The position numbers were made by a program, and so were the translations under genes. Source: Bacillota bacterium (lineage in GTDB: Bacteria > Bacillota > Dehalobacteriia > UBA4068). From it: a stretch of 64,000 nucleotides of DNA. The notes beneath the pieces are model-generated. The model was not told where the DNA came from. It saw only the letters and a list, made by a program, of their open reading frames with translations, and ran no database searches. Of this stretch, positions 7,184 through 29,360 are shown piece by piece. Positions within the stretch are counted from its first letter, which is position 1; each line of letters starts with the position of its first letter. The stretch spans positions 13,335 to 77,334 of the forward strand of contig JAUNBC010000007.1 of NCBI GenBank assembly GCA_030527285.1, given 5' to 3'.

Positions 7184-7214
7184 GAAAACCAGCATCCTGC
7201 GGATGCTGGTTTTC
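7184..7214 (+). terminator. Rho-independent terminator after tRNA-Pro
   Basis: GAAAACCAGCATCC-TGCG-GATGCTGGTTTTC. Confidence 0.7.
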
Positions 7215-7387
7215 TTTCGCCGCGTATTGAAATAAGCACGCACTAATGATAAGCTATGAAGAGGCATGGGAGGATAAACGACGGAGAAAACGGCATTCTT
7301 CCGCATACCGGCGCATGGGCATAAACAAACACATCTTTGCCTCCGCGCGCATATAATTCTACCACTGATACCGCATAAGGAGCGCTC

Positions 7388-8832: not shown

Positions 8833-9069
8833 ATGAGTAAACAAACCTGTCTCAATGATATCAAACCCGGTCAATACGGCGTAGTCACGGCGCTGCGCAG
8901 CGGCAATTCGATGCGCCGCCGGCTGCTGGACATCGGGCTGATCGAAAATACCGTGGTCGAATGTCTGGGCCGCAGCCCGGGCGGCGACCCGTCGGCTTTC
9001 CTGATACGCGGCGCGGTGATCGCCATACGCGCCGCCGACGGCGACGGCGTATTGGTGCGCGTATCCTGA
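8833..9069 (+). CDS. feoA: Ferrous iron transport protein A
   Basis: An internal ATG after GTGAGGG begins a 78-aa SH3-like FeoA pattern (GQYGVVTALRSGNSMRRRLLDIGL..G..V). Confidence 0.85.
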   Translation: MSKQTCLNDIKPGQYGVVTALRSGNSMRRRLLDIGLIENTVVECLGRSPGGDPSAFLIRGAVIAIRAADGDGVLVRVS

Positions 9070-11273
9070 TGCGGGCGGCTATGAGCAAGAGCAACGCCGC
9101 CGCCAGCAACGCCGGCCACGGCCTGCGCGATCGCCGCCGTCACCCCGATGACAAGGTGATCGCCTTGGCCGGAAACCCCAACGTCGGCAAAAGCACGCTG
9201 TTCAACGGCTTGACGGGACTCAATCAGCATACCGGCAACTGGCCGGGCAAGACGGTAAGCAATGCCGAGGGCTATTGCCGCGGCAATGATTATAACTACG
9301 TGCTGGTCGATATACCCGGCGCTTATTCGCTGATGGCTCATTCCGCCGAGGAGGAGGTGGCACGCGACTTTATCTGCTTCGGCCAACCAGACGCGGTGAT
9401 CGTGGTCTGCGACGCCACCTGCATGGAGCGCAATCTCAACCTGCTGCTGCAGATCATCGAGGTCACGCCGCGCGTGCTGGTCTGCGTAAACCTGCTCGAC
9501 GAGGCAAAGAAAAAGCGCATCAGCCTCGATCTGCCGCTGCTGCAGCAACGCCTGGGCGTGCCGGTGGTAGGCACGACGGCGCGGCAAAAAAGCAGCCTGC
9601 GGCGTTTACAGCAGGCCATGGAGCAGCTGACGGCGGGAGAAGCCCCATCCGCCCTGCCGTCTGCCGCGGCTGCTCCCGCGCAGTCGGGAGATAAAAGCGG
9701 CGGCGTTTATCAGGTACGCTATGACGCGGCCATCGAGGCGGCGGTGGCGCGCTTGCAGCCGCTGCTGCGGCATAAGTACGGCGGCCGGCTCAACGAGCGC
9801 TGGCTGGCGCTGCGCCTGATCGAGCAGGACGCGGCGCTGACAACGGCCATCGACGCGCATCTGGGCGGCGCGCTGCTGCGCGACGAGCAGCTGCTGAACG
9901 CGCTGGCGCGGGAGCGCGAGCTGTTGGCATTGCTGGGCATCGACGGCGACCGCTACAAGGATCTGCTGGTATCGGCGCTGGTACACAGCGCAGAGGATAT
10001 TTGCCGCGGCGTAGTCGGCTGCGCCGAGCGCCGCTATGACGAGCGCGACCGGCGGCTGGACCGGCTGCTCACCGGCCGGCGCAGCGGCTATCCGCTGATG
10101 CTGGCGCTGTTGGCCTTGATCTTTTGGCTGACCATCAGCGGCGCGAATTATCCCTCGGCGCTGCTGGCCGACGGCCTGTTCTGGCTGCAAGACCGCTTAA
10201 GCGAGCTGTTTATCCGGCTGGGCGCGCCCGACTGGCTGCATGGCGCGCTGGTGCTGGGCGTATATCGGGTGCTGGCCTGGGTGGTATCGGTGATGCTGCC
10301 GCCGATGGCGATATTCTTCCCGCTGTTCACGCTGTTGGAGGACGCGGGCTATCTGCCGCGCATCGCCTATAATCTCGATAAGCCGTTCCAACGCTGCAAC
10401 GCCTGCGGCAAACAGGCGCTGACCATGTGCATGGGCTTTGGCTGCAACGCCGCCGGAGTGATCGGCTGCCGTATCATCGACTCGCCGCGTGAGCGAATGC
10501 TGGCGATACTGACCAACAGCTTCGTCCCCTGCAATGGCCGCTTCCCCACGCTGATCGCGCTGCTTACGATGTTCTTCATCGGTACGGTGGGCGGCCCGCT
10601 GTCGTCATTATTGGCGGCGCTGCTGCTGACGGCGCTGATCGTGCTCGGCGTGGCCATGACCTTGATCATGACGCGGCTGCTGTCGCAGACTCTGCTCAAG
10701 GGGCTGCCCTCCTCGTACACGCTGGAGCTGCCGCCGTATCGCCGGCCGCAGATCGGCAGCGTGATCGTGCGCTCGCTGCTCGACCGCACGCTGTTCGTGC
10801 TGGGGCGGGCGGTATGCGTGGCCGCGCCGGCCGGACTGGTGATCTGGCTGCTGGCCAACGTCAATGCCGGCGAGCTGAGCCTGCTCCAGCATACGGCTGA
10901 TTTCCTCGACCCCGCCGCGCGGCTGCTGGGCATGGACGGCGTGATACTGCTGGCCTTCATCCTCGGCTTCCCCGCCAATGAGATCGTCGTGCCGATCATC
11001 ATTATGACCTACCTGGCGCAGGGCAGCCTGTTAGAGCTGGGCAGCTTGGAGCAAATGCGCGAACTGTTCGTCGCTCATGGCTGGACATGGAGCACAGCCG
11101 TCAGCGTAATGCTGTTTTCGCTGATGCATTGGCCCTGCTCGACCACGCTGCTGACGATCAAAAAGGAAAGCGGAAGCCTGCGCTGGACGGCGTTGGCCGC
11201 GCTTATGCCCACCGCCTGCGGCGTGCTGCTGTGTCTGGCGTTTACGGCGATAGTGCGTTTATGCGGCGGTTAG
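9069..11273 (+). CDS. feoB: Ferrous iron transporter B (GTPase plus permease)
   Basis: Start overlaps the feoA stop (TGATG); 9081 is an alternative start. G1 motif GNPNVGKSTLFN, then a long polytopic membrane domain. The track extension 8961-9068 overlaps feoA and is rejected. Confidence 0.9.
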   Translation: MRAAMSKSNAAASNAGHGLRDRRRHPDDKVIALAGNPNVGKSTLFNGLTGLNQHTGNWPGKTVSNAEGYCRGNDYNYVLVDIPGAYSLMAHSAEEEVARDFICFGQPDAVIVVCDATCMERNLNLLLQIIEVTPRVLVCVNLLDEAKKKRISLDLPLLQQRLGVPVVGTTARQKSSLRRLQQAMEQLTAGEAPSALPSAAAAPAQSGDKSGGVYQVRYDAAIEAAVARLQPLLRHKYGGRLNERWLALRLIEQDAALTTAIDAHLGGALLRDEQLLNALARERELLALLGIDGDRYKDLLVSALVHSAEDICRGVVGCAERRYDERDRRLDRLLTGRRSGYPLMLALLALIFWLTISGANYPSALLADGLFWLQDRLSELFIRLGAPDWLHGALVLGVYRVLAWVVSVMLPPMAIFFPLFTLLEDAGYLPRIAYNLDKPFQRCNACGKQALTMCMGFGCNAAGVIGCRIIDSPRERMLAILTNSFVPCNGRFPTLIALLTMFFIGTVGGPLSSLLAALLLTALIVLGVAMTLIMTRLLSQTLLKGLPSSYTLELPPYRRPQIGSVIVRSLLDRTLFVLGRAVCVAAPAGLVIWLLANVNAGELSLLQHTADFLDPAARLLGMDGVILLAFILGFPANEIVVPIIIMTYLAQGSLLELGSLEQMRELFVAHGWTWSTAVSVMLFSLMHWPCSTTLLTIKKESGSLRWTALAALMPTACGVLLCLAFTAIVRLCGG

Positions 11274-12272: not shown

Positions 12273-12301
12273 TTGACATTTTCCGCGGAATAGGTGATAA
12301 T
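12273..12301 (+). promoter_or_regulatory. Promoter of tRNA-Val
   Basis: TTGACA (12273-12278), 17 nt, GATAAT (12296-12301), 12 nt before the tRNA 5' end. Confidence 0.55.
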
Positions 12302-12313: not shown

Positions 12314-12390
12314 GGGGTTATAGCTCAGTTGGTTAGAGCGCCACGTTGACATCGTGGAGGTCATTGGTTCGAGCCCAACTAACCCCACCA
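12314..12390 (+). tRNA. tRNA-Val (anticodon GAC), CCA encoded
   Basis: Acceptor GGGGTTA/TAACCCC, anticodon stem CCACG/CGTGG with loop TTGACAT, T-loop TTCGAGC, 3' ACCA. Confidence 0.9.
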
Positions 12391-12635
12391 TAATTAAAAC
12401 CGCCCTTGGGGGCGGTTTTAATTATGACTGGATCAGGAGTGCCTGAGCTGCGGCTCTGCGAAGCAAAGGCCAGCTTCAGGCCAACTAACCCCACCAGAAC
12501 ACAAGGCCGCCTGCAAAGGCGGTCTTGTGTTTTACTATAATCAGGAGTGCCTGAGCTGCGACTCTGCGAAGCAAAGGCCAGCTTCAGGCCAACTAACCCC
12601 ACCATAATTAAAACCGCCCTTGGGGGCGGTTTTTC
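12375..12635 (+). repeat. tRNA-Val-linked units: 16-nt tRNA 3' fragment, terminator hairpin and 39-nt bulged palindrome, 2.3 copies
   Basis: CCAACTAACCCCACCA at 12375, 12481 and 12589. Cores at 12442-12480 and 12550-12588. Hairpin A at 12391-12424 and 12605-12635; hairpin B at 12497-12532. Confidence 0.9.
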
Positions 12636-12872
12636 TTTCGCCGCGGATTTGCCGCTTGCGGCAAAAAACGCTATCGGCAACCGCCTCCGGCAAAACGAGG
12701 GCGACGGCGGAACGAGTTGAAACGTCCATAAGCATATGATAAAATACAGTTGAAACAGCGCCGTCCATAAGCATTTGTTAAAAGGATTGTTTATCAGGCG
12801 TCGTATAGATATATGCTTTACCTCTCAGCGAAAAGCAAAAGTGCTATACTGTTTATATAATAAGACAGGGGT

Positions 12873-13080
12873 GGGAAGATGCATAACGCTTCTTGCTAAA
12901 TAATAAGGCATCATCGGACGCTCGGGGTGCTTAAAGCGCCTGCTTTTGTTGTGCCTATGCAAGAAGGCTGTCATCTTCCCAAACTCTACACATAGGGCTT
13001 CGTCCGGCCTGTGAGCTGGGCTTTGTTCGTTATGCGGGGTGCGGAAAGCTACTTTCTTGCAGCCCACATTTTTTAGGAGG
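12873..13080 (+). promoter_or_regulatory. Candidate leader-peptide attenuator of the ABC-F gene
   Basis: A 6-codon ORF (MHNASC, 12879-12899) lies inside a long-range helix (12873-12896 pairs with 12959-12980). A GC hairpin (13036-13065) and TTTTTT (13069-13074) directly precede the AGGAGG RBS. Confidence 0.4.
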
Positions 13081-13088
13081 ACAAACGT

Positions 13089-14579
13089 ATGTCGCTGATT
13101 AACGTAGATAATTTGACTTTTGCATATCCGGGAAGCTACGATAATATTTTTGAAAACGTCAGCTTTCAAATCGATACAAACTGGAAACTTGGGTTCATTG
13201 GCAGAAACGGCAGAGGCAAAACGACATTTTTAAACCTGCTTCTTGGAAAATATGAATACAACGGCAGTATTTCAGCCTCGGTCAATTTTGAATATTTTCC
13301 TTATATCGTGGCCGACAATACACGAAACACTATTGATATTATCGAGGGCGTCTGTGCGGGCGTCCTGCACTGGGAGCTGCTGCGCGAGCTGTCCCTGCTT
13401 GATGTTCCGGAGGATGTGTTGCCCCGCCCCTTTTTCACGCTATCCAACGGCGAGCAGACCAAGGTTTTGCTTGCCGTCCTGTTTCTGAAAGAAAATAGCT
13501 TTTTGTTAATCGACGAGCCGACAAATCATCTTGATATTACGGCGCGTTCCATCGTGAGCCGCTATCTGAAAAGCAAAAAGGGATTTATATTAGTATCGCA
13601 TGACAGAGCCTTTTTGGACGGCTGCATAGATCATGTTCTGTCCATCAATAAAGCAAATATTGAAATACAAAGAGGCAATTTTTCCTCCTGGCTGATCAAC
13701 AAGGAGCGGCAAGACAGCTTTGAGCTTGCGGAAAACGAGAGATTAAAAAAAGAGGTGAAGCGACTTCAAAAAACCGTAAGGGAAAAAGCAAATTGGGCGG
13801 ACGCGGCGGAGCGCAAAAAGGTGGGCGTCGATCCAAGCGCGACCGATAATCGCAGTATGGGCAAACGTCCCCTGCAAGGGGCTAAATCCAAAAAGCTCAT
13901 GAAAAAGGCCAAAGCCATTGAAAAACGCCGGGAAGCCGCCGTTGAGGAAAAATCCGGGCAGCTCAAAAACATTGAAAACGCCGACCGTCTGAAAATAGCG
14001 CCGCTTTCTTATTTCACGAGCCGCCTGGCGGAGCTTGCCGACGTTTCTATTTATTATGGCTCCAAAACAGCCTGCGCAGGCGTTAGCTTTACGATAGAAT
14101 ACGGCGACCGCATTGCTCTTACGGGCAAAAACGGAAGCGGGAAATCAAGCGTGCTAAAGCTTATCCGCGGCGAGGATATGATTTATACCGGCACTTTAAA
14201 AAAAGGCAGCCGCCTAATCGTTTCCTATGTTTCACAGGACACTTCATTTTTAAGCGGCAGCCTTTCAGACTACGCTTTGCAAAATGGAATTGAGGAGAGC
14301 CTTTTCAAAGCGACCCTGCGCAAGCTGGATTTTTCAAGGGTGCAATTTGAAAAGGATATGCGCGATTTTAGCGGCGGTCAAAAGAAAAAGGTGCTGCTTG
14401 CAAGAAGCCTTTGCGAAAAGGCCCATCTGTACATTTGGGACGAGCCGTTAAATTACATCGACGTGATCTCCCGTATGCAAATTGAAGATATGATCCTGCA
14501 ATTCAAGCCAACCATTTTGTTTGTCGAGCATGATAGTGCGTTTTGCGGAAAAATCGCAACGAAAGAAGTAAGATTATAG
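13089..14579 (+). CDS. Lsa-type ARE ABC-F ribosomal protection protein (two ABC domains, no TM domain)
   Basis: 496 aa. Motifs DTNWKLGFIGRNGRGKTT, WELLRELSLL, GFILVSHDRAF, FELAENE and LYIWDEPLNY, with a charged inter-domain linker. They align well with my memory of Enterococcus Lsa(A). The gene is AT-richer than the host genes. Confidence 0.8.
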   Translation: MSLINVDNLTFAYPGSYDNIFENVSFQIDTNWKLGFIGRNGRGKTTFLNLLLGKYEYNGSISASVNFEYFPYIVADNTRNTIDIIEGVCAGVLHWELLRELSLLDVPEDVLPRPFFTLSNGEQTKVLLAVLFLKENSFLLIDEPTNHLDITARSIVSRYLKSKKGFILVSHDRAFLDGCIDHVLSINKANIEIQRGNFSSWLINKERQDSFELAENERLKKEVKRLQKTVREKANWADAAERKKVGVDPSATDNRSMGKRPLQGAKSKKLMKKAKAIEKRREAAVEEKSGQLKNIENADRLKIAPLSYFTSRLAELADVSIYYGSKTACAGVSFTIEYGDRIALTGKNGSGKSSVLKLIRGEDMIYTGTLKKGSRLIVSYVSQDTSFLSGSLSDYALQNGIEESLFKATLRKLDFSRVQFEKDMRDFSGGQKKKVLLARSLCEKAHLYIWDEPLNYIDVISRMQIEDMILQFKPTILFVEHDSAFCGKIATKEVRL

Positions 14580-14694
14580 CTTCCCCATATGCGGCGCTGT
14601 ATCTGGCTTCGAGTGGGGCTCCGCCCCCTCGAGGCTCCCCCGGACGGTGCGATACCGTGGTTTAGCATCTGCATCTTTTTGTTGGCACATGACA

Positions 14695-14752
14695 TAATTA
14701 AAACCGCCCTTGGGGGCGGTTTTAATTATGACTGGATCAGAAGTGCCTGAGC
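14695..14752 (+). repeat. Half unit: hairpin A plus spacer plus the first 7 nt of the 39-nt core, no tRNA fragment
   Basis: TAATTAAAACCGCCCTTGGGGGCGGTTTTAATTATGACTGGATCAGAAGTGCCTGAGC matches 12391-12448 almost exactly, then homology stops. Confidence 0.75.
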
Positions 14753-14870
14753 CGCGGCGGCGCTTATGGGCAAGCAGACGGCTTGCCTCTGTCCTTTTGG
14801 ACTGGGGCGCATACCTTTATGTCTGAACGCCGCTATGCGACGCTGGCGCCTGCGCTACACTTCACCGCTT

Positions 14871-15656
14871 TTACACGCTCAGGCAGATGCTGCGTTGGTT
14901 TTGCTTGCGGTCGGTGATGGTTACGACCTGCATGGGGATGCCGTAGACCTGCTCCAGACTCTCGTCGGTCAGCACTTGCTGCGGCGGTCCCAGGCTCAGA
15001 GTCTGACCCTCGCGCATCAGTAGCACCTGCGAGGCGATGGCAAAGGGCTGAGCCGGGTTATGCGTCGTGACGATGACGATCTTGCCCGCGCGAGCCAGCT
15101 CGTTGATGGCGTCGTTGATCAGCTGTTGATTGGCAAAGTCCAGACTGGCCGTGGGCTCGTCCATCATCAGGATACAGGTCTTTTGGCAGAGAGCGCGGGC
15201 GATCAGCACCAGCTGGCGCTGGCCGCCGGACATCTTGAAATAGGGGAAATCCGCCAGATGCTGTATCTTTAGCTGGCACAGGCAGTCATAGGCGATCTCG
15301 ATGTCCTCGGGCTTGGGCGTTTGCATATTGCCCAGATAGGCGGAGCGGGCCATGGTCACCATCTCCAACGCCGTATAAGCGAACATGGCCTGGTCGCGCT
15401 GCGGAATATAGGCAAAATAGCGCGCCATCTGGCGGCGGCTGAGGCGATCCACATCCACGCCGCGGCAGATGATGCGGCCCGCGGTCTTGGGGAGGAAGCG
15501 CAGCAGCAGCTTGAGCAGCGTGGATTTGCCGCAGCCGTTCGGACCCAGCAGGCACAATACGTCTCCGGCGGCCAGTCCGAAGGACAGGCCGTGCACCACT
15601 TCTTTTTTACCGTAGCCGCCACGCAGGTCGCTGACCTGTAATTCCAGCTCCGCCAT
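14871..15656 (-). CDS. Iron-siderophore/cobalamin-type ABC transporter ATPase (FecE/FepC-like)
   Basis: Walker A GPNGCGKSTLLK, signature MSGGQRQ, Walker B ILMMDEPT. Confidence 0.85.
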   Translation of the reverse strand: MAELELQVSDLRGGYGKKEVVHGLSFGLAAGDVLCLLGPNGCGKSTLLKLLLRFLPKTAGRIICRGVDVDRLSRRQMARYFAYIPQRDQAMFAYTALEMVTMARSAYLGNMQTPKPEDIEIAYDCLCQLKIQHLADFPYFKMSGGQRQLVLIARALCQKTCILMMDEPTASLDFANQQLINDAINELARAGKIVIVTTHNPAQPFAIASQVLLMREGQTLSLGPPQQVLTDESLEQVYGIPMQVVTITDRKQNQRSICLSV

Positions 15657-16685
15657 TTAAGCCTTCCCCCTTCTCAAGATCAGCATCACAAAGAACGGCG
15701 CGCCGAACAGGGCTGTAAGCACGCCAATCGGTATCTCCAGCGCCATGAGCGAGCGCGCCAAGTCGTCCATGACCAGCAGGAAGCAGCCTCCCATCAGCGC
15801 CGCCACCGGCAGCATGCGCCTGTAATCGGCTCCGGCCAGACCGCGGGCGATATGCGGCACCATCAGCCCCACCCAGCCGATCAGCCCGCCCAGACAGACC
15901 GCGCCGGCTGAAATGATGGTAGCGGCCAGAATGGCGGCCAGCCGCACCTTGCGCGGATCCACGCCGATGGCCATGGCCTCCTCGTCGCCCAGAGTCAGCA
16001 GGTTGAGCCGCCAACGCAGCAGGAACAGCGCCAGCATGCCCAGAGCCATCGGCGTAAGGCTAAACAGCAGGTCCGAGGTATCGACCTTGGATAACGAGCC
16101 CATCAGCCAGTAGGTGATGGCTGGCAGCACGTCGTTGGGGTCGGCCACATACTTGATAACTGTGATAGAGGCGTTGCACAGCTCGCGCAGCATGGTACCA
16201 GCCAGCACCAGACTGACAGCCTGACCGAATTTGGCGCGCGAGCCGATCAGGTAGGTCAAAAACACGGTGACCACGCCGAAGCAAAAAGCTGCGGCCTGCA
16301 CGCCAAAGCTGCTCCAACCCAGCAGCAGAGCCAGACAGGCGCCGAGCCCCGCGCCCTGCGACACGCCGAGAATATCCGGCGAGACGAGCGGGTTCTTGAA
16401 CATGCCCTGATAGGCCGCGCCGGCCACGGCCAGACCGGCGCCGATCAAAAAGGCGGCGGCGATGCGCGGCACGCGGATATTGCGCACGATGACCGGGATA
16501 TTGGGCTCGACCGCCTCCGCTCCGTGCAGCAGATAGGCGTAGATCTGTTGCAGCGTGGCGCCGTAGAAGCCGATATTCAGGGACAGCAGCGGCAGCAGCA
16601 GGCTCAGGGCTATCAGCAGCGGCAGCAGCCAGGGTCGCCGGAGCCGGGCCACGCCCGCCGGCAGCGTTGTTTGATGCTTGCTCAT
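15657..16685 (-). CDS. FecCD/BtuC-family ABC permease
   Basis: About 340 aa from the internal Met MSKHQTTLP. Around 9-10 TM segments with Gly-rich FecCD-type motifs. The upstream 24 codons of the track ORF lack support. Confidence 0.8.
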   Translation of the reverse strand: MSKHQTTLPAGVARLRRPWLLPLLIALSLLLPLLSLNIGFYGATLQQIYAYLLHGAEAVEPNIPVIVRNIRVPRIAAAFLIGAGLAVAGAAYQGMFKNPLVSPDILGVSQGAGLGACLALLLGWSSFGVQAAAFCFGVVTVFLTYLIGSRAKFGQAVSLVLAGTMLRELCNASITVIKYVADPNDVLPAITYWLMGSLSKVDTSDLLFSLTPMALGMLALFLLRWRLNLLTLGDEEAMAIGVDPRKVRLAAILAATIISAGAVCLGGLIGWVGLMVPHIARGLAGADYRRMLPVAALMGGCFLLVMDDLARSLMALEIPIGVLTALFGAPFFVMLILRRGKA

Positions 16686-16796
16686 TTTCACTATAGTCAA
16701 AAAAGAATATTGTTTGCGGGAAATAATTCTTTCTAAGAATAATCTATTTTGCCGCATTTGTCAATCGGCACCCGGATAACTCCATTCAACGTATAG

Positions 16797-16857
16797 TTGA
16801 CAAATCGTGCGCCGCCTATTATACTAATCTCAGAATATATATGTAAGTATATATTCT
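16797..16857 (+). promoter_or_regulatory. Consensus promoter with a perfect 10-6-10 inverted repeat operator or leader hairpin
   Basis: TTGACA (16797-16802), 17 nt, TATACT (16820-16825), then AGAATATATA-TGTAAG-TATATATTCT (16832-16857). Confidence 0.5.
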
Positions 16858-16892
16858 CACGAAAAGAGAATAGAAGAGAGAGGAGAACGAAA

Positions 16893-17981
16893 ATGAAACA
16901 CAAGCTATTGATGCTGCTGCTCTGCCTGCTGCTCAGCCTGTGCCTGCTGGCCGCCTGCGCTCAGACGCAGGAACCGGCGGTTGACGAGCAGGAGCAGGAA
17001 CAGCCTGAGGCGACGACGCGCGAGCTCGTCGACATGGCTGGGCGCACCATCACCCTGCCATCAGAAGTGGCCACCGGTCTTGGCACCGGCGCCATCGGCA
17101 GCTACATGCTCTACACACTGGATCCGGACACCATGGTCGGCGTCAACTATGAGTTCAACGACCAGGAGAAGGCCTATATCCTCGAAGCCTACCATGACCT
17201 GCCCAGCTTTGGCCAGGGCGACGGCTTCAACCTTGAAGCCGTGGTGGCCGCCGCGCCGGATGTGCTGATCAACTACGGCTCCGTCAACGACGCCACCATC
17301 AGCTCGGCTGACGACATTCAGGCTCAGACCGGTATCCCCTGCGTGGTGCTGAACAGCGATATGGAAGAAACGGCAGCCGCCTACCGCATGCTGGGCGAGA
17401 TCTTCGGCATGCCGGAGCGGGCTGAGGAGCTGGCTGTCTATGCTGAAGAAGCCCTGGCCTTCGCGGAGTCCATCGATATCCCCGAAGAAGAACGGGTCAG
17501 CGTCTATTTCGGCAATGGACTGGAAAATCTGGAGACGGCGCCGGTCGGTTCCTGGCACGCTAGCCTGCTGGAGCTGGTTGACGCCATCAACGTGGCCGTG
17601 GTCGAAGGCGAGGTCACGAACCGTATCGACGTCAGCGCTGAGCAGGTCATCGGCTGGAATCCCGAGGTGGTGCTGCTCAACGGCGAACCGACGGAGGATC
17701 TCTCGCCTGTTCAGGCCGTGGAAGCCTTCCTGGCCGATGCGCGCTACCAGAACGTGCAGGCTGTGGTCAACGATCAGGTCTATGCCATCCCTAAATATCC
17801 CTACTCCTGGTTTGACCGTCCTCCCGGACCCAACCGCCTCATCGGCATCTATTGGCTGGCCGAGCTGCTGTATCCGGAGAATTTCGATCTGGATATCAAG
17901 GCTGAGGCGCGCGAATTCTACGCCCTTTATTATCATATGGAGCTCAGCGACGAGCAGCTCGTCGACCTGTTAGGCTACTGA
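16893..17981 (+). CDS. Periplasmic-binding-protein (class III, siderophore/B12-type) lipoprotein
   Basis: An internal ATG after GAGAGGAGAA gives MKHKLLMLLLCLLLSLCLLAAC (lipobox), followed by an acidic linker and a PBP fold. Confidence 0.8.
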   Translation: MKHKLLMLLLCLLLSLCLLAACAQTQEPAVDEQEQEQPEATTRELVDMAGRTITLPSEVATGLGTGAIGSYMLYTLDPDTMVGVNYEFNDQEKAYILEAYHDLPSFGQGDGFNLEAVVAAAPDVLINYGSVNDATISSADDIQAQTGIPCVVLNSDMEETAAAYRMLGEIFGMPERAEELAVYAEEALAFAESIDIPEEERVSVYFGNGLENLETAPVGSWHASLLELVDAINVAVVEGEVTNRIDVSAEQVIGWNPEVVLLNGEPTEDLSPVQAVEAFLADARYQNVQAVVNDQVYAIPKYPYSWFDRPPGPNRLIGIYWLAELLYPENFDLDIKAEAREFYALYYHMELSDEQLVDLLGY

Positions 17982-18070
17982 TCCCCGCTTGAAATAGCGG
18001 TAAAGGTGATTGCCCTTGTTACACACACTGGAGAATAACTGCGTCTTTTTTGCACGCACATGACGCAACA

Positions 18071-18100
18071 AAAAGCCATCCTTTGAGGATGGCTTTTTGC
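18071..18100. terminator. Bidirectional terminator hairpin
   Basis: AAAAAGCCATCC-TTTGA-GGATGGCTTTTT. Confidence 0.6.
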
Positions 18101-18117
18101 TATGGTGATTGGCAGCG

Positions 18118-18278
18118 TCTGAGCTGCGGCTCGGCGAAGCAAAGGCCAGCTTCAGGCCAACTAACCCCACCAGAACACAAGGCCGCCTGCAAAGGCGGTC
18201 TTGTGTTTTACTATAATCAGGAGTGCCTGAGCTGCGGCTCTGCGAAGCAAAGGCCAACTTCAGGCCAACCAACCCCGC
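18118..18278 (+). repeat. Distal tRNA-Val-linked units: core, 16-nt fragment, hairpin B, core, degenerate fragment
   Basis: Cores at 18118-18156 and 18226-18264. CCAACTAACCCCACCA at 18157-18172. Hairpin B at 18173-18208. CCAACCAACCCCGC at 18265-18278. Confidence 0.9.
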
Positions 18279-18441
18279 TTCATCGTTTCGCTGGCCAATT
18301 TCTTGCGTTCCGGCGTGTACCGCTTATTCGGTACTTGCTTTGGAAATAGCGACGCCCCATTTGTTTTTCAGTATGCAATACTGTCAAACGAATAGGGCGC
18401 CATTTATCATTTCTTACATATGTTTATTCTCATTAGGTTCG

Positions 18442-19446
18442 CTAAACTCTGATCAGTTTGAGAATATTACCGGTTTTATGAAAATTCAGCGTTTGTATAT
18501 AAAGATTTCCTTGCTCATCGCCGCAGATCCCATGCGCCATCAAAGGAGAATTTTCATAACCAAGCTGCGATACGATATTCATATCCATATCAAGAATAGT
18601 AATACCGCCGTCCACCTCGCCAACGAAAACATTTTCTGTATTGGCCCAAATATCCGCTGGTTTATAAATCAAATCCTTTATCACGGCAAGTAGTTCGCCT
18701 GCGGTAGAAAAAACTTGTATACGGCTGTTTTCCCTATCTGCTAACCACAGGCGCTCCATCCTATCTATCCATAAACCATGGGGCAAACGAAACTCCCCAT
18801 CATTGTTTCCGGGATTGCCCCATGTCTTGGTCAACGTGCCGTCAGCGGAAAACTTGTGTATCGCGGCATTACCATAGCCATCGGCGGCAAAAAAATCTCC
18901 CGTTGATGATTCTATCATTTTAGCCGGTTGATTAAAGGGCGCTCCGGTACGCTTGATAGTTCTTAATCCATCAACTGGAGAAAAAGCAGCGTTAAAATGT
19001 ATGTCGTTCGGTATCCCATATTCCCTTTTGAGCCAAGAACAAACGTCCTGCTCATATCCGGTATCAGAAGGATGATTTATAACGCCAAAATCGCGCAGCA
19101 GTTGGCCATCAGCATCAATTTCACGCACGATATGCCGCTTTTTATCGGTACACAATACCGTGTTGCGCGGCGTAACAAATATTCCGTGCAAATCATCGCT
19201 AAACAAGCCTTGCCCCAAAGACTGCTGATAATTGCCGTTAGCATCAAAGACGATAATCGGATTGTTTATATCGCGAGTTGATACGTACAAATTGCCGCGG
19301 CAATCAAAACAGCCGGAGACTACCGTACTTTTTCTCAGATATTCGGGCCATTTCGCCCAGCCGCAATCCAATTTATAGGAGAAGCCCCTATTACTAAAAA
19401 CCACATCGGCTTCCGCCGTCCGGTATTTATTACCGTATATGTCCAT
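18442..19446 (-). CDS. NHL-repeat six-bladed beta-propeller, peptidyl-alpha-hydroxyglycine alpha-amidating lyase (PAL)-like
   Basis: 334 aa. The stretch GDFFAADGYGNAAIHKFSADGTLTKTWG..GEFRLPHGLWID..LWLADRENSRIQVF parallels, from my memory of rat PAL, GAVFVSDGYCNSRIVQFSPSGKFVTQWG..GQFSVPHSLAL..LCVADRENGRIQCF. Three HG motifs (H87, H223, H305), DGY191 and ADR238EN. Confidence 0.7.
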   Translation of the reverse strand: MDIYGNKYRTAEADVVFSNRGFSYKLDCGWAKWPEYLRKSTVVSGCFDCRGNLYVSTRDINNPIIVFDANGNYQQSLGQGLFSDDLHGIFVTPRNTVLCTDKKRHIVREIDADGQLLRDFGVINHPSDTGYEQDVCSWLKREYGIPNDIHFNAAFSPVDGLRTIKRTGAPFNQPAKMIESSTGDFFAADGYGNAAIHKFSADGTLTKTWGNPGNNDGEFRLPHGLWIDRMERLWLADRENSRIQVFSTAGELLAVIKDLIYKPADIWANTENVFVGEVDGGITILDMDMNIVSQLGYENSPLMAHGICGDEQGNLYIQTLNFHKTGNILKLIRV

Positions 19447-19617
19447 TCACGTGAACCTCCCGCTTGTTTTCACTAAAAAGAAAGGGCGACGCCTATCTGC
19501 GCCACCCTCCTTTTTAGCTCAGACGCCCTGTTCATCCATAATCTGTGCTTTTCTATCCTATGGAAAAAAGAGGGGACGTATTAAATCAATGAATTTCCGC
19601 AAAACCTTACGGCTAAA

Positions 19618-21015
19618 CTATGCTTTCCTGTTTGCCATATGGCTCCATACCGGCTTGCCCCAATGCTTTGTTCCGCTGGCCTCCGGATCGACCACGCCTT
19701 CATCCATTACTACTTTGCCTCTCAGGATAGTGTAATTAAGCTTGCATCCTAAAATGTCGTCATCGTAGATCTTGGTATTGGGTGTAAACTCACAACGCAT
19801 TTGATCGTGCAAATCAAAAATCACCAGATCGCCATCAGAGCCCGGTTGTATAACCCCTTTTTGCGGATAAATATTGAAGCATTTTGCGGGGTTCTCACAA
19901 CATAGCTGAACTACTCTCTCCAGCGTTATACCACGCTCTCCTTTAACTACTTCGTTTATCATCAGCGGCAACCGCAGGTTTATGCCTTGAAACCCTGATA
20001 TACCCAAGAAAATATTTTCGTTACCTCTTTCATTCTCTTCTCTTGTGTCGTCGCCATGATCGCTGCCGATCCAATCGACAGTTCCGTCTAAGACGTATTC
20101 CCATATGGCGTCGATAGTCTCCTGGTTTCGCAGAGGCGGGTTGCATTTTCCGTAAGCCTTATGCTTGACTACTTCTTCTTCTGTTTTGAGAAGATAATGC
20201 GGGCAAGTCTCCAAGAAAACTTTTTTGTTTTTAGCTTTGGCTTCTTTCGCCATTTGCATAGCTTCCGGCGTAGAGATATGAGCCAGAAGCAGGGCGCAAC
20301 CCGTTGCATCGGCAATCGTCATCAGCTTTTGCACTTCCAAGTATTCAGATATGGGCGGTCTGGACAAAGAATGATACTTTCCGTCCACCTTGCCCTCGCT
20401 GATAAACTTGTTTATCAAACTGCTGATTATATCATTGTTCTCCGCGTGCGAAGCCAGCATTAAGCCTGTTTTGGCGATTTCCGTCATACCCACTAACACT
20501 TCATAATCTGTGGACATGGTCAAGCCAGTAAATTCTTTTTCCCTTCCCGGAAGCGGTTCATGCAAAAATGTCTTATATGCTATCGCGCCCGCCTCCGCTA
20601 AGTCAACGATATTTTCGGGAAACTCTCCGCCGGCAGCCCCATAAAACGCATAGTCTACAACGCTACCGCGCTCTTCAACAACTTTAAACCTGTTCAAAAA
20701 GATATCTTTATTATACGGCGGAGGCGAGGAAACCGGATGCTCAAGAATGGTGGTCGTGCCGCCTCTTGCCGCCAACATCGATTCCGAATCCCATTTAGCC
20801 CGTCCCGGAATGGTGGGATCACGAAAATGGACATGGGGATCGATACCGCCAGGGATAACATATTTACCTTCGGCATCGATCGTTTTCTCCGCTTTCGGTA
20901 AACAACCCGGCTCCGTGATCATCGCAAATTTTTCGTCTTTGATGCCAATGTCGACTTTCTTAAATACTCCGCCAACATATGCCGTACCATTAATGACCGC
21001 AAGATCTAATTCCAT
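19618..21015 (-). CDS. Cyclic amidohydrolase (allantoinase/hydantoinase/dihydropyrimidinase family)
   Basis: 465 aa. Metal ligands in family order: HVHFRD, AYKTF (carbamylated Lys), ASHAE, LAHIS, GSDHG. Confidence 0.8.
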   Translation of the reverse strand: MELDLAVINGTAYVGGVFKKVDIGIKDEKFAMITEPGCLPKAEKTIDAEGKYVIPGGIDPHVHFRDPTIPGRAKWDSESMLAARGGTTTILEHPVSSPPPYNKDIFLNRFKVVEERGSVVDYAFYGAAGGEFPENIVDLAEAGAIAYKTFLHEPLPGREKEFTGLTMSTDYEVLVGMTEIAKTGLMLASHAENNDIISSLINKFISEGKVDGKYHSLSRPPISEYLEVQKLMTIADATGCALLLAHISTPEAMQMAKEAKAKNKKVFLETCPHYLLKTEEEVVKHKAYGKCNPPLRNQETIDAIWEYVLDGTVDWIGSDHGDDTREENERGNENIFLGISGFQGINLRLPLMINEVVKGERGITLERVVQLCCENPAKCFNIYPQKGVIQPGSDGDLVIFDLHDQMRCEFTPNTKIYDDDILGCKLNYTILRGKVVMDEGVVDPEASGTKHWGKPVWSHMANRKA

Positions 21016-21057
21016 TTTTGGCCCCCCGATTCATTTGGTTTCTGCAAACAATCTTTG

Positions 21058-22092
21058 CTATTCCGCATTTAATAGATTAACGTATATCTCATACACTTCG
21101 GGGTCAACATTTTCTTCGATCAACGGCCAAGTGGTTTTTGCCAGATCAGCAAAAGCCTGTCTTTGTTCCTCCGTCAGATCAACAAAGATGATGCCTGCTT
21201 CTTCAAGTAATTCTCTGCTTTCCACCAAGCCCGCATCGGCAAATTCCCTTGACCAGTCAAACGCGACAGCGGCGGCTTCGTTCAGCAGCTGTTGAATATC
21301 CGCCGGCAAAGAATTCCAGAATTCCAGATTGATGATAATCGGGCAGGTAAGATGAATATGACTCGTCATGGTCACGTACTTTTGCTGCTCATAATACTTG
21401 TCGAAATAAATCGATTGCAGCGGATTTTCCTGAGCGTCAACAATCCCTTGCTGCAAAGCCACATAAATCTCACTTCCGGGTATCGGCGTCGGGTTGGCGC
21501 CCATAGCCTGCCAGGCCGCTATATGATACTTATTATCCATCGTTCTAAGAGTTAAGCCGTTCAAATCCTCCGGAGTTTCGATCATTATATTTGAGGACAA
21601 TTCTCTAAAATGCCCGTCAGTAATGCCCATCAACTTAATTCCAGCCGCCTCGTATTTCTCGTTGAGGATGGCTAACAATTCCGGATCAGCGATAACTTCT
21701 CTGGCATGTTCAGCGCTCTTATAAGCAAACGCCATGTCAAAGATCGCCAGATCGGGAATGAAGTTAGCCTGCGCCGCGGCAGTACCCACATGCATGGTAA
21801 CGCTGCCAGTCTGAAGCCCCTCGATGATCTCTCTTTCCGAGCCAAGCTGAGCGTTAGGATATACGCTGACTACAACCCGACCATCGGCATGCTCATCAAT
21901 GTATTCCTTAAACTTGATGCAATACTGCGAAACTGTTGTTTCCTCGGCGCTGCCGGTTGCTAAAATCATTTCATATACGGTCGCATCATCTACAACCGCC
22001 TCACCGCTGTCAGCGGGATCGTCTGTGGCGCAAGCTGCAAATACTAACGCGACCAAGACTAAAGCAAATAATAAGCCAATCATTTTTTTCAT
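21058..22092 (-). CDS. dctP: TRAP transporter substrate-binding protein (DctP family), lipoprotein
   Basis: Start MKKMIGLLFALVLVALVFAAC after GGAAGGTG, followed by a DctP-type fold. Track start 22113 is an alternative. Confidence 0.8.
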   Translation of the reverse strand: MKKMIGLLFALVLVALVFAACATDDPADSGEAVVDDATVYEMILATGSAEETTVSQYCIKFKEYIDEHADGRVVVSVYPNAQLGSEREIIEGLQTGSVTMHVGTAAAQANFIPDLAIFDMAFAYKSAEHAREVIADPELLAILNEKYEAAGIKLMGITDGHFRELSSNIMIETPEDLNGLTLRTMDNKYHIAAWQAMGANPTPIPGSEIYVALQQGIVDAQENPLQSIYFDKYYEQQKYVTMTSHIHLTCPIIINLEFWNSLPADIQQLLNEAAAVAFDWSREFADAGLVESRELLEEAGIIFVDLTEEQRQAFADLAKTTWPLIEENVDPEVYEIYVNLLNAE

Positions 22093-22333
22093 TTTTTTCA
22101 CCTTCCCATACATTATTTTTTGATATTCAATACCGTTTTGCGCTTATGCTTCATCGAATAATCATTTTTCATACCTCCCAGCAAAAATTATTATCCAAAA
22201 TACATCCAGTACCATATAGAATATACGTTCGTTGCAAGCATCAGTTATCTACTTAACAACAACTTTTAACCTGTATCATTATTGCGCACGCTGCGAGGAT
22301 TACACTCAGCGTCTAAGCGCCCCTGACGAGAAA

Positions 22334-23623
22334 TCATTTGAGCAGCACTAAGCTTAATTCCGGAATAAATGTTACGATCAGCAACGCCACAATAAATGAA
22401 ATAATAGCCGGTACAGCTTTTTTGGCAATAGACAGCACCGGTACGTCGCTTATCCTGCTTGCCACAAATAAGTTAGCGCCAATGGGCGGTGTAATGAAGC
22501 CTATGGCAAAAGTAATTACCATTACGACGCCAAAGTGAATCGGGTCTATACCTACTGCGTTTACTATTGGCATACAGATCGGCGCAAGGATCATGATCGC
22601 AACCAGGCCATCCATAAGCATACCCACAATCGTGCAGAAGCCAATGAGTATTAAGAACACTCCAACCGGCGTTGATACCATAGACAGCAAAGTTTCTGTT
22701 AATTGCTGCGGCACCTGCATCAAGGTAAGCACTCTCCCGAAAACCAGTCCCGCAGACATTATCACCATTAACGGACCAATAGAGCATATGGAGTCTTTAG
22801 TAACTCGAATAATGTCCTTGATACTTAACGAACGATAAATAAAGCATCCAACTATCAGAGCATAAACAACTGAAACGTCTGCTGCTTCTGTAGGAGTGAC
22901 GATGCCGCCATAAATACCGCCAAGGATTATTACCGGTGATAATAGCGCCCAAAAACTGTTCTTGAACAGCTGCCAGAAGCTCATCTTTCGTAATTCAACG
23001 TAGTTCTCCAGCAGTTTTTCTTTATCTTCGCCCTTTTTCTTGCAATAGTAATAGGCGTACAGCATCATGCACAAACCCATGATTATGCCCGGAATAATAC
23101 CGGCAATAAACAGGTCGCCCACAGACTCCCCTGTCGCAACACCAAAAACGATAAACGGAATGCTTGGGGGAATGATTACCCCCAAAGAACCAGCGACGGC
23201 TACAATGGCAACTACCCAATTCTTTTCGTACCCGAAATTGACCAAAATCGGGATTGTCATAACGCCGACCGCCGCTACTGTAGCCCCTGCGGAACCACAG
23301 ATAGCGCCATAAAACAAACAGGTGGCAATGATCGCTATCGGCAACCCGCCTGTTTTATTACCGGCAAAATATGCAATAAAATCGAATATCTTTTTTGATA
23401 TACCGCTGGCTGCCATCAGGTTTCCGGATAAAACAAAAAGCGGTATTGCAAGCAAGGTGAACGAATCGATACCTGTTATCATACTGCGGAAAACATATAC
23501 GGCGTCAGCTGCAAATGACGGCAGCACCATAGACGGAACCAGCGAAGATAAGGCTATCGAAATACCAATAGGTACTCCCACCAGTAAAGTAATCAAAAAA
23601 ACCGCAAACACATATGCTGTCAC
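22334..23623 (-). CDS. dctM: TRAP transporter large permease (DctM)
   Basis: 429 aa, about 12 TM segments, typical DctM composition. Start abuts the dctQ stop. Confidence 0.85.
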   Translation of the reverse strand: MTAYVFAVFLITLLVGVPIGISIALSSLVPSMVLPSFAADAVYVFRSMITGIDSFTLLAIPLFVLSGNLMAASGISKKIFDFIAYFAGNKTGGLPIAIIATCLFYGAICGSAGATVAAVGVMTIPILVNFGYEKNWVVAIVAVAGSLGVIIPPSIPFIVFGVATGESVGDLFIAGIIPGIIMGLCMMLYAYYYCKKKGEDKEKLLENYVELRKMSFWQLFKNSFWALLSPVIILGGIYGGIVTPTEAADVSVVYALIVGCFIYRSLSIKDIIRVTKDSICSIGPLMVIMSAGLVFGRVLTLMQVPQQLTETLLSMVSTPVGVFLILIGFCTIVGMLMDGLVAIMILAPICMPIVNAVGIDPIHFGVVMVITFAIGFITPPIGANLFVASRISDVPVLSIAKKAVPAIISFIVALLIVTFIPELSLVLLK

Positions 23624-24111
23624 TAATCCGCCCTCCTTTGACTAAATCTATAAAGCTTTTTAATATATTTCTCAATAAATCTGACTAAAGAAAAGAAAAT
23701 CCCCACCAGAAAAGACAAATATACTAAATACATGGGAATACTGAGGGCGGCGCTGGTTTGATTGCTGTTGATTAGATAATTTATCACTTCTATTCCCGGC
23801 TTTATCATATATACGATAAAAACGACAAATAAGATATCGCCAAATATTAATAAGAATTTTTTTGTTTTCGGGAAAAAAGACTCTACTAAATCCAGCCGGA
23901 TGTGAGTGTTGTTATTGATCCCGTAGCTAAGCGCCAAAAAAGAAAACCAAATGAAAATGTATCTCGACAGTTCGTCAGACCAAGATAAAGATGAATGGAA
24001 AACATACCTCATTATGACAGATATGCCCATGATCAATACTATTGCCCATAAGGCGCTGCCCATAATTATCCCTTCAAAATTATCGTCAATCCATTTTAAG
24101 GCTTTTTTCAT
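23623..24111 (-). CDS. dctQ: TRAP transporter small permease (DctQ)
   Basis: Internal start MKKALKWIDDNFEG after AGGAGGAGAAAA. Four TM segments, about 162 aa. Confidence 0.75.
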   Translation of the reverse strand: MKKALKWIDDNFEGIIMGSALWAIVLIMGISVIMRYVFHSSLSWSDELSRYIFIWFSFLALSYGINNNTHIRLDLVESFFPKTKKFLLIFGDILFVVFIVYMIKPGIEVINYLINSNQTSAALSIPMYLVYLSFLVGIFFSLVRFIEKYIKKLYRFSQRRAD

Positions 24112-24193
24112 TTTTCTCCTCCTGTGCTCAGATCCTGTACTCAGATAATAGCCGCCATTATACAATCAGCACGAGAAATAATTCTGGGGTCCA

Positions 24194-25393
24194 TCAAATA
24201 TCCGCTTCATCGATCCTGATAATAGTTTCCAATAATAAATCAGTTCCTATCTTGATATCTTCCATTGCCGAAAACTCTTCAGGACTATGGCTGACGCCAT
24301 TCTTACTGGGCACAAATATCATTACCGTAGGCACATGCAAGCCAAATTCCTTCGCGTCATGCCCTGCGGAGCTGCCCATGGTTTTATATTTCTGGCCATT
24401 TTCTTTGCATATGCTCTCTACTATGTCTACTAAACGCTCATCCATGGCCACGGCCGGTTTATAAACGTGCAGGTTGTAGCTGATCTTGCATCTGGTTTCT
24501 TTATTAGCTTCCTTCTGTACTTCGCAAATGAATTCTTCCATATTCTTTGAGCTAAAATCTCTAATCGAAAGAGATAATTCCACTCGTCCGGGAATAACAT
24601 TAGACGCATTTGGAAACACGTTTAATTCTCCCACCGTCCATACAAAAGGATGTGGATACTTTTTGGCTATCTCTTCAACTTTACATAGAAACTTGGCCGC
24701 GCACATGACCGCGTCTTTTCTTTTATTCATGGGCGTGCAGCCGGCATGATTGGCTTCGCCAATTATTGTAATATGGTACGTCATGATCCCAACTATGTTA
24801 TTCACAATACCCACCGGGATGCGCTCATCGTCGAGCACTTTCCCTTGCTCGATATGCAGCTCCAAAAAAGCCTTGATTTTGGAAGTATCTGCTCTCAACT
24901 CTAAAACGCGGGGATCAATGCCGAGCTTCTGTAATTCTAACAAAACCTCTTCCGTTTGGGTGTTCTCGCGGCCTAACAAAACCCTGCTGCTGAAGCACCC
25001 GCCTAATTCGGGTAGTTCTTCACAGTTTAAGGCAATTATTTCCAGAGGATGCCGCGTATAGTATGAATTATCATTCAACGTATTAAGACATTCCAACGCC
25101 GCTGCGACGCCTAAGTTGCCGTCAAAAATGCCGCCATTTACAACCGTGTCCAAATGTGAACCTAATACGATCGCCGGCAGATCGTTATTCTTACCCTCTC
25201 TTCTGCCGATTACATTTCCCAGTTCATCCATATGCACCGTCAGATTTGCGGCCTTCATCTGTTGTGCCAAGACTTCTGCGGCTTGATAGTATTCTTTACT
25301 CCAGGCAACTCTGGTAATACCGCCATGCTCGTTTTTGCCGATATTACCTACTGCGTAAAGATTTTTTTCTAATCTAAAAATATTGGTCTCCAT
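24194..25393 (-). CDS. M20-family amidase, allantoate amidohydrolase/N-carbamoyl-amino-acid hydrolase type
   Basis: Start METNIF after AGGAGG. GGITRVAWSKEY..VLGSHLDTVVNGGIFDGNLGV is typical of the AllC/AmaB (hydantoinase/carbamoylase) family. Confidence 0.8.
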   Translation of the reverse strand: METNIFRLEKNLYAVGNIGKNEHGGITRVAWSKEYYQAAEVLAQQMKAANLTVHMDELGNVIGRREGKNNDLPAIVLGSHLDTVVNGGIFDGNLGVAAALECLNTLNDNSYYTRHPLEIIALNCEELPELGGCFSSRVLLGRENTQTEEVLLELQKLGIDPRVLELRADTSKIKAFLELHIEQGKVLDDERIPVGIVNNIVGIMTYHITIIGEANHAGCTPMNKRKDAVMCAAKFLCKVEEIAKKYPHPFVWTVGELNVFPNASNVIPGRVELSLSIRDFSSKNMEEFICEVQKEANKETRCKISYNLHVYKPAVAMDERLVDIVESICKENGQKYKTMGSSAGHDAKEFGLHVPTVMIFVPSKNGVSHSPEEFSAMEDIKIGTDLLLETIIRIDEADI

Positions 25394-25530
25394 TTTTCCT
25401 CCTGCTTTCACGGTATGAATGCGCCATCTTTATTTCGAACACAAACCCGGCAGCAATGAAAGAGCAAATAATTATCTTGGTTATTGACGCCTCAGACAAA
25501 CTATCGAATTAAAGACTCCAAATGCCATTA

Positions 25531-26550: not shown

Positions 26551-26603
26551 ACTGTTCTCCCTTTATATTACCTCTGACATAAAACCCGATATCGGTGTCC
26601 AGA

Positions 26604-29307: not shown

Positions 29308-29360
29308 GTGCTTAATCGCCCCGACAAAGCGGGTGCTGTCTGATTATTCCACAAGCTCAA

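Follow-up and report, generated by a model that had tools for sequence, protein, structure and literature searches.

Organization of the tRNA-Val array

The DNA analyzed here is a 64,000-nucleotide stretch (the window) of contig JAUNBC010000007.1 from the Bacillota bacterium assembly GCA_030527285.1. It contains a tRNA-Val(GAC) gene that is followed, on the same strand, by an array of short repeated units enclosing two blocks of genes: an Lsa-like ABC-F gene (lsa) and the operon of a FecCDE-type iron importer (fec). The features are listed in Table 1, with positions counted from the first letter of the window. The last 16 nt of the tRNA-Val gene (12375-12390) are the stretch copied in every unit, and are referred to as T'. 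The 15-mer CCAACTAACCCCACC from the 3' end of the tRNA was repeated exactly at 12481, 12589, and 18157 and with three mismatches at 18265, a recurrence far above chance, since none of 100 shuffles had five matches. The outermost copy was the most diverged one, and this degenerate fragment marks the outer edge of the array, as had been proposed in an earlier description of the DNA (the original prediction).

Comparison of the units showed a common plan of ~107 nt: a terminator-like hairpin, a spacer, a conserved 40-nt hairpin (the core), and the 16 nt of the tRNA 3' terminus. Behind the tRNA gene the modules are arranged in the order unit A, unit B, a short hairpin A', the lsa block, a half unit, fec, unit C, and a second unit B (unit B'). 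Hairpin A is a perfect 17-bp stem that includes the final CA of the tRNA gene. Hairpins A, B, and C are unrelated, yet the adjoining cores are 96-98% identical. Both gene blocks have the same ending, which consists of a ~23-nt motif (GCRTCTTTTT..GCACATGAC), a terminator hairpin, a spacer, and a core; the motif reads GCATCTTTTTGTTGGCACATGAC ahead of the half unit and GCGTCTTTTTTGCACGCACATGAC ahead of unit C (18041-18064). The half unit had been described from 14695 onward and is real, with 96.9% identity between 14695-14758 and 12391-12454. The sequence before 18157 had been taken for a partial core; it is instead a complete third unit with a hairpin of its own (18065-18100), which would double as the terminator of the binding-protein gene in fec.

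In unit C (GGTG..ATTGG / CCAA..CACC) and in the units behind tRNA-Gly described below (GGTGGT/ATCACC), the spacer on the 5' side of the core can pair with the first nucleotides of the tRNA copy. The unit C spacer also holds GGTGATTGG, which is similar to GGTCATTGG of tRNA-Val. A tRNA-like fold of the units was considered and rejected: ARAGORN called none, and the 5' acceptor strand is missing.

In the whole window there were seven full cores and one half core, all on the forward strand, all beside a tRNA fragment, and all co-oriented with the tRNA. None was found in the ~50 other intergenic regions, and a search of the window with nhmmer for diverged extra copies returned only the half core (14740-14758). 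The only genes within the repeat-bounded segment are those of the ABC-F protein and the fec transporter, and no integrase, serine recombinase, or transposase was identified with Pfam, NCBIfam, or PHROGs among the ~45 open reading frames (ORFs) of the window.

Table 1. Features of the tRNA-linked arrays and the genes that they enclose
Feature	Position	Strand	Description
tRNA-Gly(TCC)	2808-2881		array directly 3'
tRNA-Gly array	2882-3233	+	3.6 tandem 101-nt units
tRNA-Val promoter-like site	12273-12301
tRNA-Val(GAC)	12314-12390	+	array anchor; ARAGORN; Rfam tRNA, 65.9 bits
Unit A	12391-12496	+	hairpin A 12389-12426, spacer 12427-12440, core 12441-12480, T' 12481-12496
Long direct repeat, left copy	12441-12604	+	core, T', unit B; module alignment, blastn
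Unit B	12497-12604	+	hairpin B 12498-12531, spacer 12532-12548, core 12549-12588, T' 12589-12604
Hairpin A'	12603-12638	+	short stem, then T-run; ordinary terminator shape
lsa promoter-like site and leader	12717-13088	+	promoter-like site 12717-12745; upstream ORF 12879-12899; terminator-like hairpins 12925-12941 and 13002-13021
Lsa-like ABC-F	13089-14579	+	ribosomal-protection type, 496 aa; NCBIfam
Half unit	14693-14758	+	full hairpin A 14693-14730, spacer 14731-14744, first 14 nt of core 14745-14758
FecE-type ATPase	14871-15656	-	third-codon-position GC 0.81
FecCD-type permease	15657-16757	-	third-codon-position GC 0.79
fec divergent promoter-like sites	16736-16825
Substrate-binding lipoprotein	16893-17981	+	Peripla_BP_2; lipoprotein signal peptide
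Unit C	18065-18172	+	hairpin C 18065-18100, spacer 18101-18116, core 18117-18156, T' 18157-18172
Long direct repeat, right copy	18117-18280	+	module alignment, blastn
Unit B'	18173-18280	+	hairpin B 18174-18207, spacer, core 18225-18264, degenerate outermost tRNA fragment CCAACCAACCCCGCTT 18265-18280
tRNA-Ser array	32796-33260	-	analogous array; different structured repeat family
tRNA-Ser(CGA)	33261-33349	-

Short sequences that follow hairpin A' recur after another terminator in the window. The sequence TTTCTTTCGCCGCG comes after hairpin A' and also after the tRNA-Pro terminator, and the 15 nt TTTTCTTTCGCCGCG are common to 7210-7224 and 12631-12645, in each case behind a terminator hairpin (that of tRNA-Pro and the truncated hairpin A, respectively). 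The latter may be a shared native post-terminator motif or chance.

Nested direct repeats

The original prediction described 12481-12588 and 18157-18264 as near-identical repeats bracketing the gene blocks. The two segments were the same at 106 of 108 positions, and the two mismatches were those that it had named (12561 A vs 18237 G; 12581 G vs 18257 A). The full extent of the repeat exceeds 108 nt: module-by-module alignment gave the two copies in Table 1, which are the same at 156 of 164 positions with a start-to-start spacing of 5676, while a repeat search gave 12431-12600 / 18107-18276 (95% identity) and blastn gave 12443-12600 / 18119-18276 (97.5% over 158 nt).

This pair is one of three nested pairs of direct repeats in the array. 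A 45-nt repeat (T' plus hairpin A) encloses units A and B, both of which are empty. A perfect 31-nt repeat within hairpin A (12603-12633 in hairpin A' and 14693-14723 in the half unit; spacing 2090) encloses lsa alone, and the ~160-nt repeat encloses lsa and fec together. Two direct repeats of ~160 nt, 95-97% identical, around a 5.7-kb mosaic cargo adjoining a tRNA gene make loss or circularization of the segment by recombination physically plausible, so that part of the original prediction stands. The nested 31-nt and 45-nt repeats, however, make loop-out of the whole segment only one of several possible products. The ~45 window ORFs scanned include no recombinase, and the repeats belong to a multi-copy family rather than forming a dedicated pair of ends.

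Arrays behind tRNA-Gly and tRNA-Ser

Units of the same design were found directly 3' of the tRNA-Gly(TCC) gene, where each consists of a hairpin, a spacer, a homologous core, and a copy of the tRNA-Gly 3' end, CCATCACCCG(C/T)TCT. The Gly core is 85-88% identical to the Val core. This array has no cargo; it fills the gap to the tRNA-Arg gene and is located between eamA and tRNA-Arg/hom-thrB-lysC. The tRNA-Gly 3' copies read CTA in place of CCA, and in units 2-4 the tRNA copy is flanked by a 9-bp inverted repeat (AGCTTCAGA / TCTGAAGCT).

The analogous array behind tRNA-Ser(CGA) is built from a different family of structured repeats. It contains a 51-nt terminator block twice (33210-33260 and 32796-32846, 100% identical) and a 17-nt copy of the tRNA-Ser 3' end (33069-33085). 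The repeat between the two blocks, 32894-33067, is 81% identical to tandem repeats (L024:1-282) located upstream of an lsa homolog in the Clostridia metagenome-assembled genome (MAG) GCA_030527165.1. For all three tRNAs, Val, Gly, and Ser, the copied fragment runs from the boundary of the T-loop with the 3' side of the T-stem to the 3' end. Microhomology in the T-loop was considered as the junction of the duplications; it suits Val and Gly (TTCAGR vs TTCGA) and fails for Ser.

The core hairpin and its relatives in other genomes

The consensus fold of the wider core region is a hairpin of 17 pairs, and compensatory changes distinguish its Gly and Val versions. The inner hairpin (30-32 nt) was compared among 15 variants and has 13 pairs, with 95% of the cells paired and compensatory changes at two pairs. 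Its covariation score was reached by none of 500 shuffles, and a bulge and a purine-purine mismatch are both conserved. Among the variants of one MAG the stem is kept by two-sided changes, for example AGCTG...CAGCT vs ACCTG...CAGGT.

A permissive Rfam search of the Val and Gly arrays and of the metagenome loci matched the tRNAs alone. Near and distant BLAST searches of plasmids and phages returned only matches to the generic terminator stem, a scan of IMG/VR with two core patterns gave no matches, and a genome scan with a Val-specific core pattern gave none either. A looser, generic core pattern matched 10 loci in three GTDB MAGs (two uncultured Peptococcaceae and one Bacillota), and five metagenome contigs were also matched. 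In these genomes the inner hairpin belongs to a two-hairpin repeat of ~81-85 nt that is dispersed, often tandem, mostly located at contig ends, and without an attached tRNA fragment. Tandem arrays of such a repeat, with units of ~81-95 nt, were seen at L014:1030-1213, L006:5252-5364, L010:1-140, and L016:7270-7522, which are loci from other Bacillota MAGs and from metagenome contigs. One copy lies ~500 nt from a gene for an IS110-family transposase (DEDD_Tnp_IS110 and Transposase_20; L005:579-1751), an arrangement reminiscent of the IS110-family elements that target repetitive extragenic palindromic (REP) sequences, and the remaining neighbors are ordinary genes. The core hairpin, which shows covariation, occurs in several Bacillota lineages, and is not in Rfam, is a candidate new repeat family even if it is merely REP-like.

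Cargo genes and composition of the region

The mosaic composition reported between the repeats was borne out. The GC content at third codon positions (GC3) was 0.74-0.83 in the backbone genes, 0.53 in lsa, 0.74-0.81 in fec, and 0.37-0.51 in the genes of 18.3-32.8 kb, and the interval from 12.4 to 33.3 kb, between the convergent tRNA-Val and tRNA-Ser genes, is a compositional patchwork in a backbone of ~60% GC. An AT-rich lsa piece is present, as described, but it extends only from ~12717 to 14582 and has no contact with the repeat units, from which it is parted by GC-rich sequence.

The ABC-F gene itself is AT-rich (GC 0.46). Its product scored 471 bits against NCBIfam NF000355 (ribo_prot_ABC_F, "ribosomal protection-like ABC-F"), above the cut-off of 380, and 712.6 bits against NF000167 (the Lsa family), below the cut-off of 750. 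The closest homologs had 82% and 77% identity, and thousands of homologs with 68-75% identity were found on long chromosomal contigs of Clostridia. The gene is foreign by composition but a member of a common clostridial chromosomal family, and is no recognized mobile Lsa allele. Since it falls below the Lsa cut-off and its family sits on chromosomal contigs of many Clostridia, the claim that a mobile circle would carry a resistance gene was overstated, and the segment as it stands offers no evidence of a mobile resistance gene.

The AT-richer gene was correctly said to have its own leader. This leader contains an upstream ORF of six codons (uORF; MHNASC*) followed by terminator-like hairpins, and a Ser-Cys-stop uORF is kept at the closest homologous loci (MRIISC* at L023:832-852 and MLNLSC* at L024:852-872), where the genes are 77-82% identical. 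DNA homology with these two loci begins at ~12863. The uORF and hairpins are likely to constitute an attenuation leader, an arrangement consistent with ribosome-mediated attenuation. Hairpin A, the core, and the tRNA-Val copy were all absent from the flanks of the closest lsa homologs (L023-L025). Within the lsa promoter region (12723-12783) are two 22-nt direct repeats, CGTCCATAAGCATATGATAAAA and CGTCCATAAGCATTTGTTAAAA; one of them overlaps the promoter-like site, the other is just downstream, and the pair could be an operator or a duplicated promoter.

The fec genes and their divergent promoter-like sites also agreed with the original prediction, and by codon composition the operon looks native. 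For the binding protein, the start at 16797 in the ORF list is too far upstream; the ATG at 16893, which is followed by the signal MKHKLLMLLLCLLLSLCLLAAC, is likely to be the true start. The listed start of the FeoB ORF (8961-9080) is likewise too far upstream, the database version having 730 aa vs 770.

Beyond the outermost tRNA-Val fragment, and extending to the outermost tRNA-Ser fragment, is a 14.5-kb low-GC block (18281-32795; GC 0.43, GC3 0.37-0.51). It encodes an NHL-repeat protein, a hydantoinase/allantoinase-like amidohydrolase, a DctPQM TRAP transporter, an M20 peptidase, two aminotransferases, and IclR, as well as a very AT-rich 381-aa ORF without a family match, a YgjP-like fragment, and an XRE-type helix-turn-helix protein. 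No integrase was found in this block.

Possible origins of the array

A tentative preference, at somewhat less than an even chance, is given to the reading that a tRNA integration hotspot has built up an accretion array without an integrase, of which the segment is the inner part. This reading is favored by exact 15-16-nt tRNA copies behind an intact tRNA gene and in the same orientation, by the decay of the outermost copy, by a fragment start that is alike in Val, Gly, and Ser even though the repeat accompanying Ser is a different one, by a conserved element-side motif immediately upstream of each tRNA copy, and by units that part cargo blocks of differing composition within the 12.4-33.3 kb patchwork. 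Site-specific accretion yields tandem arrays with decayed, integrase-less members (PMC5704250, PMC3146451), and in the ssrA islands of Dehalococcoides a conserved motif likewise lies directly upstream of the repeats (PMC3146451).

Under this reading, the 3' end of tRNA-Val would have received several insertions, and the incoming DNA would each time have carried a copy of the last 16 nt, so that the tRNA gene stays intact. With each insertion would also have come a terminator hairpin and the conserved 40-nt hairpin, located just upstream of the tRNA copy and possibly a recombinase-binding arm. Older copies would have been displaced outward and the outermost would have decayed, if this order of events is correct. 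The blocks would then be integrase-less remnants akin to cis-mobilizable elements (CIMEs), the integrase having been lost or never present. The two ~160-nt repeats would be two copies of one block of core, T', and unit B, which could have arisen when a circle with one copy recombined into the resident copy, or by unequal exchange inside the array. The segment could presumably still be removed by RecA-type homologous recombination between the 164-nt repeats, and the lsa block alone between the 31-nt repeats; site-specific excision would require a recombinase encoded elsewhere in the genome. The architecture of the array and the missing local recombinase are observed directly, but any mobility at the present day would be an inference.

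Several observations weigh against accretion. The lack of any recombinase gene among the ~45 window ORFs is one of them, and random deletion would hardly be expected to leave units of only ~100 nt with the same design at two tRNAs. The hairpin after the tRNA gene is also the hairpin after the last complete tRNA copy of the left block, and the resulting 45-nt repeat looks more like local duplication than like independent elements. The fec operon lies inside the array yet has native codon composition, the AT-rich lsa block does not touch the units, and the DNA that is most foreign (18.3-32.8 kb) is located beyond the outermost tRNA-Val fragment. Core-like hairpins elsewhere are dispersed and REP-like, with neither a tRNA fragment nor an integrase alongside.

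The main rival, a serious one although on balance unlikely to be correct, is that the units are intergenic repeats similar to REP sequences and to bacterial interspersed mosaic elements (BIMEs), amplified locally by tandem duplication, unequal crossing-over, and gene conversion. The duplicated unit would simply have taken in the terminator and the 3' fragment of the tRNA, lsa and fec would be chromosomal genes caught between copies, and the apparent mobility would amount to occasional homologous deletion or duplication. The occurrence of the inner hairpin in MAGs of Peptococcaceae and other Bacillota and in metagenome contigs, where it is dispersed, often tandem, assembly-breaking, and free of tRNA fragments, agrees with this explanation, as do the conservation of the hairpin by compensatory changes with its bulge and purine-purine mismatch kept, the plain 3.6-copy tandem repeat at tRNA-Gly in a cargo-free housekeeping context, and the tandem occurrence in another genome of the second structured repeat, that of the tRNA-Ser array. 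The 45-nt and 51-nt duplications (T' with hairpin A, and the tRNA-Ser terminator) also suit local duplication, and native-looking fec genes and the missing recombinase fit as well. It accounts poorly for the distribution within the window, however, where all 7.5 of the 7.5 cores in 64 kb are tRNA-linked and co-oriented and the other intergenic regions have none. The tRNA fragment begins at the same structural position in three tRNAs, one of which has an unrelated repeat; unrelated hairpins A, B, and C beside nearly identical cores are not produced by simple duplication; and fragments of tRNA-Val occur 5.7 kb away from the tRNA, beyond the fec operon. A more improbable alternative is an undescribed class of miniature (~100 nt), non-autonomous modules without a recombinase that home to tRNA 3' ends. 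Recombination would take place at the long hairpin that the spacer, core, and tRNA copy form together, possibly as folded single-stranded DNA, and insertion would recreate the target, giving integron-like cassette arrays that trap gene blocks, including the ABC-F gene, through a trans-acting recombinase encoded elsewhere. The equal architecture and size of the units at two tRNAs, with similar cores, tRNA-specific ends, and unrelated terminator hairpins, point in this direction, as do the common layout in which both cargo blocks end and the lack of a match to a known RNA or mobile-element family in the searched collections. The complementarity of spacer and tRNA copy would extend the hairpin into the tRNA copy, but it is short, the compositional edges of the lsa block differ from the unit edges, the tRNA-linked form occurs in one genome only, and a recombinase for such modules is neither known nor found.

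Joining of non-contiguous pieces by the metagenome assembler across the 160-nt repeats, for example of a foreign AT-rich lsa contig, is very unlikely to explain the locus. Independent short-read contigs from SRR24915838 do end at 12362, 14711, and 18227, which are positions at the tRNA gene or within repeats. The lsa junctions have no independent contig support, the same sample holds a different lsa homolog from another organism, and exact look-up of the lsa and binding-protein genes in public assemblies returned only the contig of the window. On the other hand, contigs from the same reads that are 100% identical to the window cover 14711-16199 (half unit to fec) and 18227-29446 (unit B' to the low-GC island; L002), the unit family recurs 9 kb away behind tRNA-Gly, and a chimeric join would not have created an lsa block set between GC-rich sequence and perfect copies of hairpin A. 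Breaks at tRNA genes in short-read assemblies of this organism are accounted for by the arrays. The searched collections contained no relative near enough for presence and absence to be compared: the 117-aa protein adjoining tRNA-Val is an orphan, and the nearest FeoB relatives are ~70% identical, not syntenic, and have no tRNA-Val downstream.

Should the units prove to be genuine recombination sites, the tRNA genes of this uncultured, Oscillospiraceae-like lineage would be cassette-collecting platforms without a resident integrase, and an antibiotic-responsive ABC-F gene would reside in a module able to be lost or passed on.

Comparison with known systems

Some families of mobile DNA could be set aside. 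An integron attC site does not fit: there is no GTTRRRY box beside the hairpin on either strand, no Rfam match, and no integrase. Miniature inverted-repeat transposable elements do not fit, since the Val units have no inverted repeats at their ends (a 9-bp inverted repeat is seen in the amplified Gly units only, around the tRNA copy) and the duplications, of 16, 31, 45, and 164 nt, are not of a fixed length. A composite transposon was rejected because the flanking repeats are 164-nt non-coding hairpin units and not transposase-encoding insertion sequence (IS) copies. In the case of a PATE-like element of the IS200/IS605 type, the hairpin abuts the tRNA end, leaving no space for a left-end guide, and there is no Y1 transposase. 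The 14-15-bp duplication of a casposon-like element is inconsistent with the variable duplication lengths, and neither terminal inverted repeats nor Cas1 are present.

The structure of the core is that of REP/BIME sequences: a short imperfect palindrome with conserved structure, bulge, and mismatch, which is extragenic, follows terminators, and occurs in tandem clusters alternating with other short motifs, with relatives dispersed in other genomes, one of them near an IS110-family transposase. Unlike REP/BIME sequences, the copies in the window are all joined to the 3' fragment of a tRNA and run in the direction of that tRNA, and no REP-associated tyrosine transposase (RAYT) was seen in the window. 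Integron cassette arrays, and the clusters of attC sites lacking integrases (CALINs), are similar in that structured imperfect hairpin sites separate promoter-bearing or promoterless blocks, some units are empty, and no integrase is nearby. In contrast to these, the array has no R''/L''/L'/R' boxes, GTTRRRY, IntI, or attI, its anchor is a tRNA gene, and its cargo includes a three-gene operon with its own divergent promoters. Composite islands of the type of the staphylococcal cassette chromosome mec (SCCmec) and pdif modules also have resistance-type cargo between repeated sites that can be paired differently, and modules without a recombinase. They differ in the type of site, the target, and the taxa, and their trans-acting enzymes are known (Ccr and XerCD).

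A closer likeness is to CIMEs and site-specific accretion in the ICESt1/ICESt3 family (PMC5704250). As in CIMEs, repeats of the attL/attR type flank a segment without integration, recombination, or transfer genes, and this segment is in tandem with similar pieces at the 3' end of a conserved gene. Unlike CIMEs, there is no visible descent from an integrative and conjugative or mobilizable element (ICE or IME) and no known helper, and the look of fec is native and not that of imported DNA. The searches found no related element with an integrase, and those of viral, plasmid, and phage collections were empty.

The tRNA-Val array was likened most directly to tandem islands at tRNA and tmRNA genes: the ssrA islands of Dehalococcoides (PMC3146451), tDNA islands of the Islander/TIGER type, and the tycheposon arrays of Prochlorococcus (bioRxiv 10.1101/2020.12.28.424599). 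Of the features that define a tRNA-targeting island, the tRNA gene and a direct repeat of its 3' end are present, while an integrase inside or adjacent is not. In common with these islands, several direct repeats of the 3' end lie behind a target gene that is itself intact, an element-derived motif lies immediately upstream of each repeat, insertion is at or next to the T-loop, the cargo differs in composition, and some members lack an integration module. The array departs from them in that no member carries an integrase, several of the "islands" are just ~100 nt long, the hairpin that directly follows the tRNA has a second copy on the distal side, and the element-side motif is a 40-nt structured hairpin common to arrays at two tRNAs. 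These tRNA-linked hairpin units are a new variation on the tRNA-island theme.

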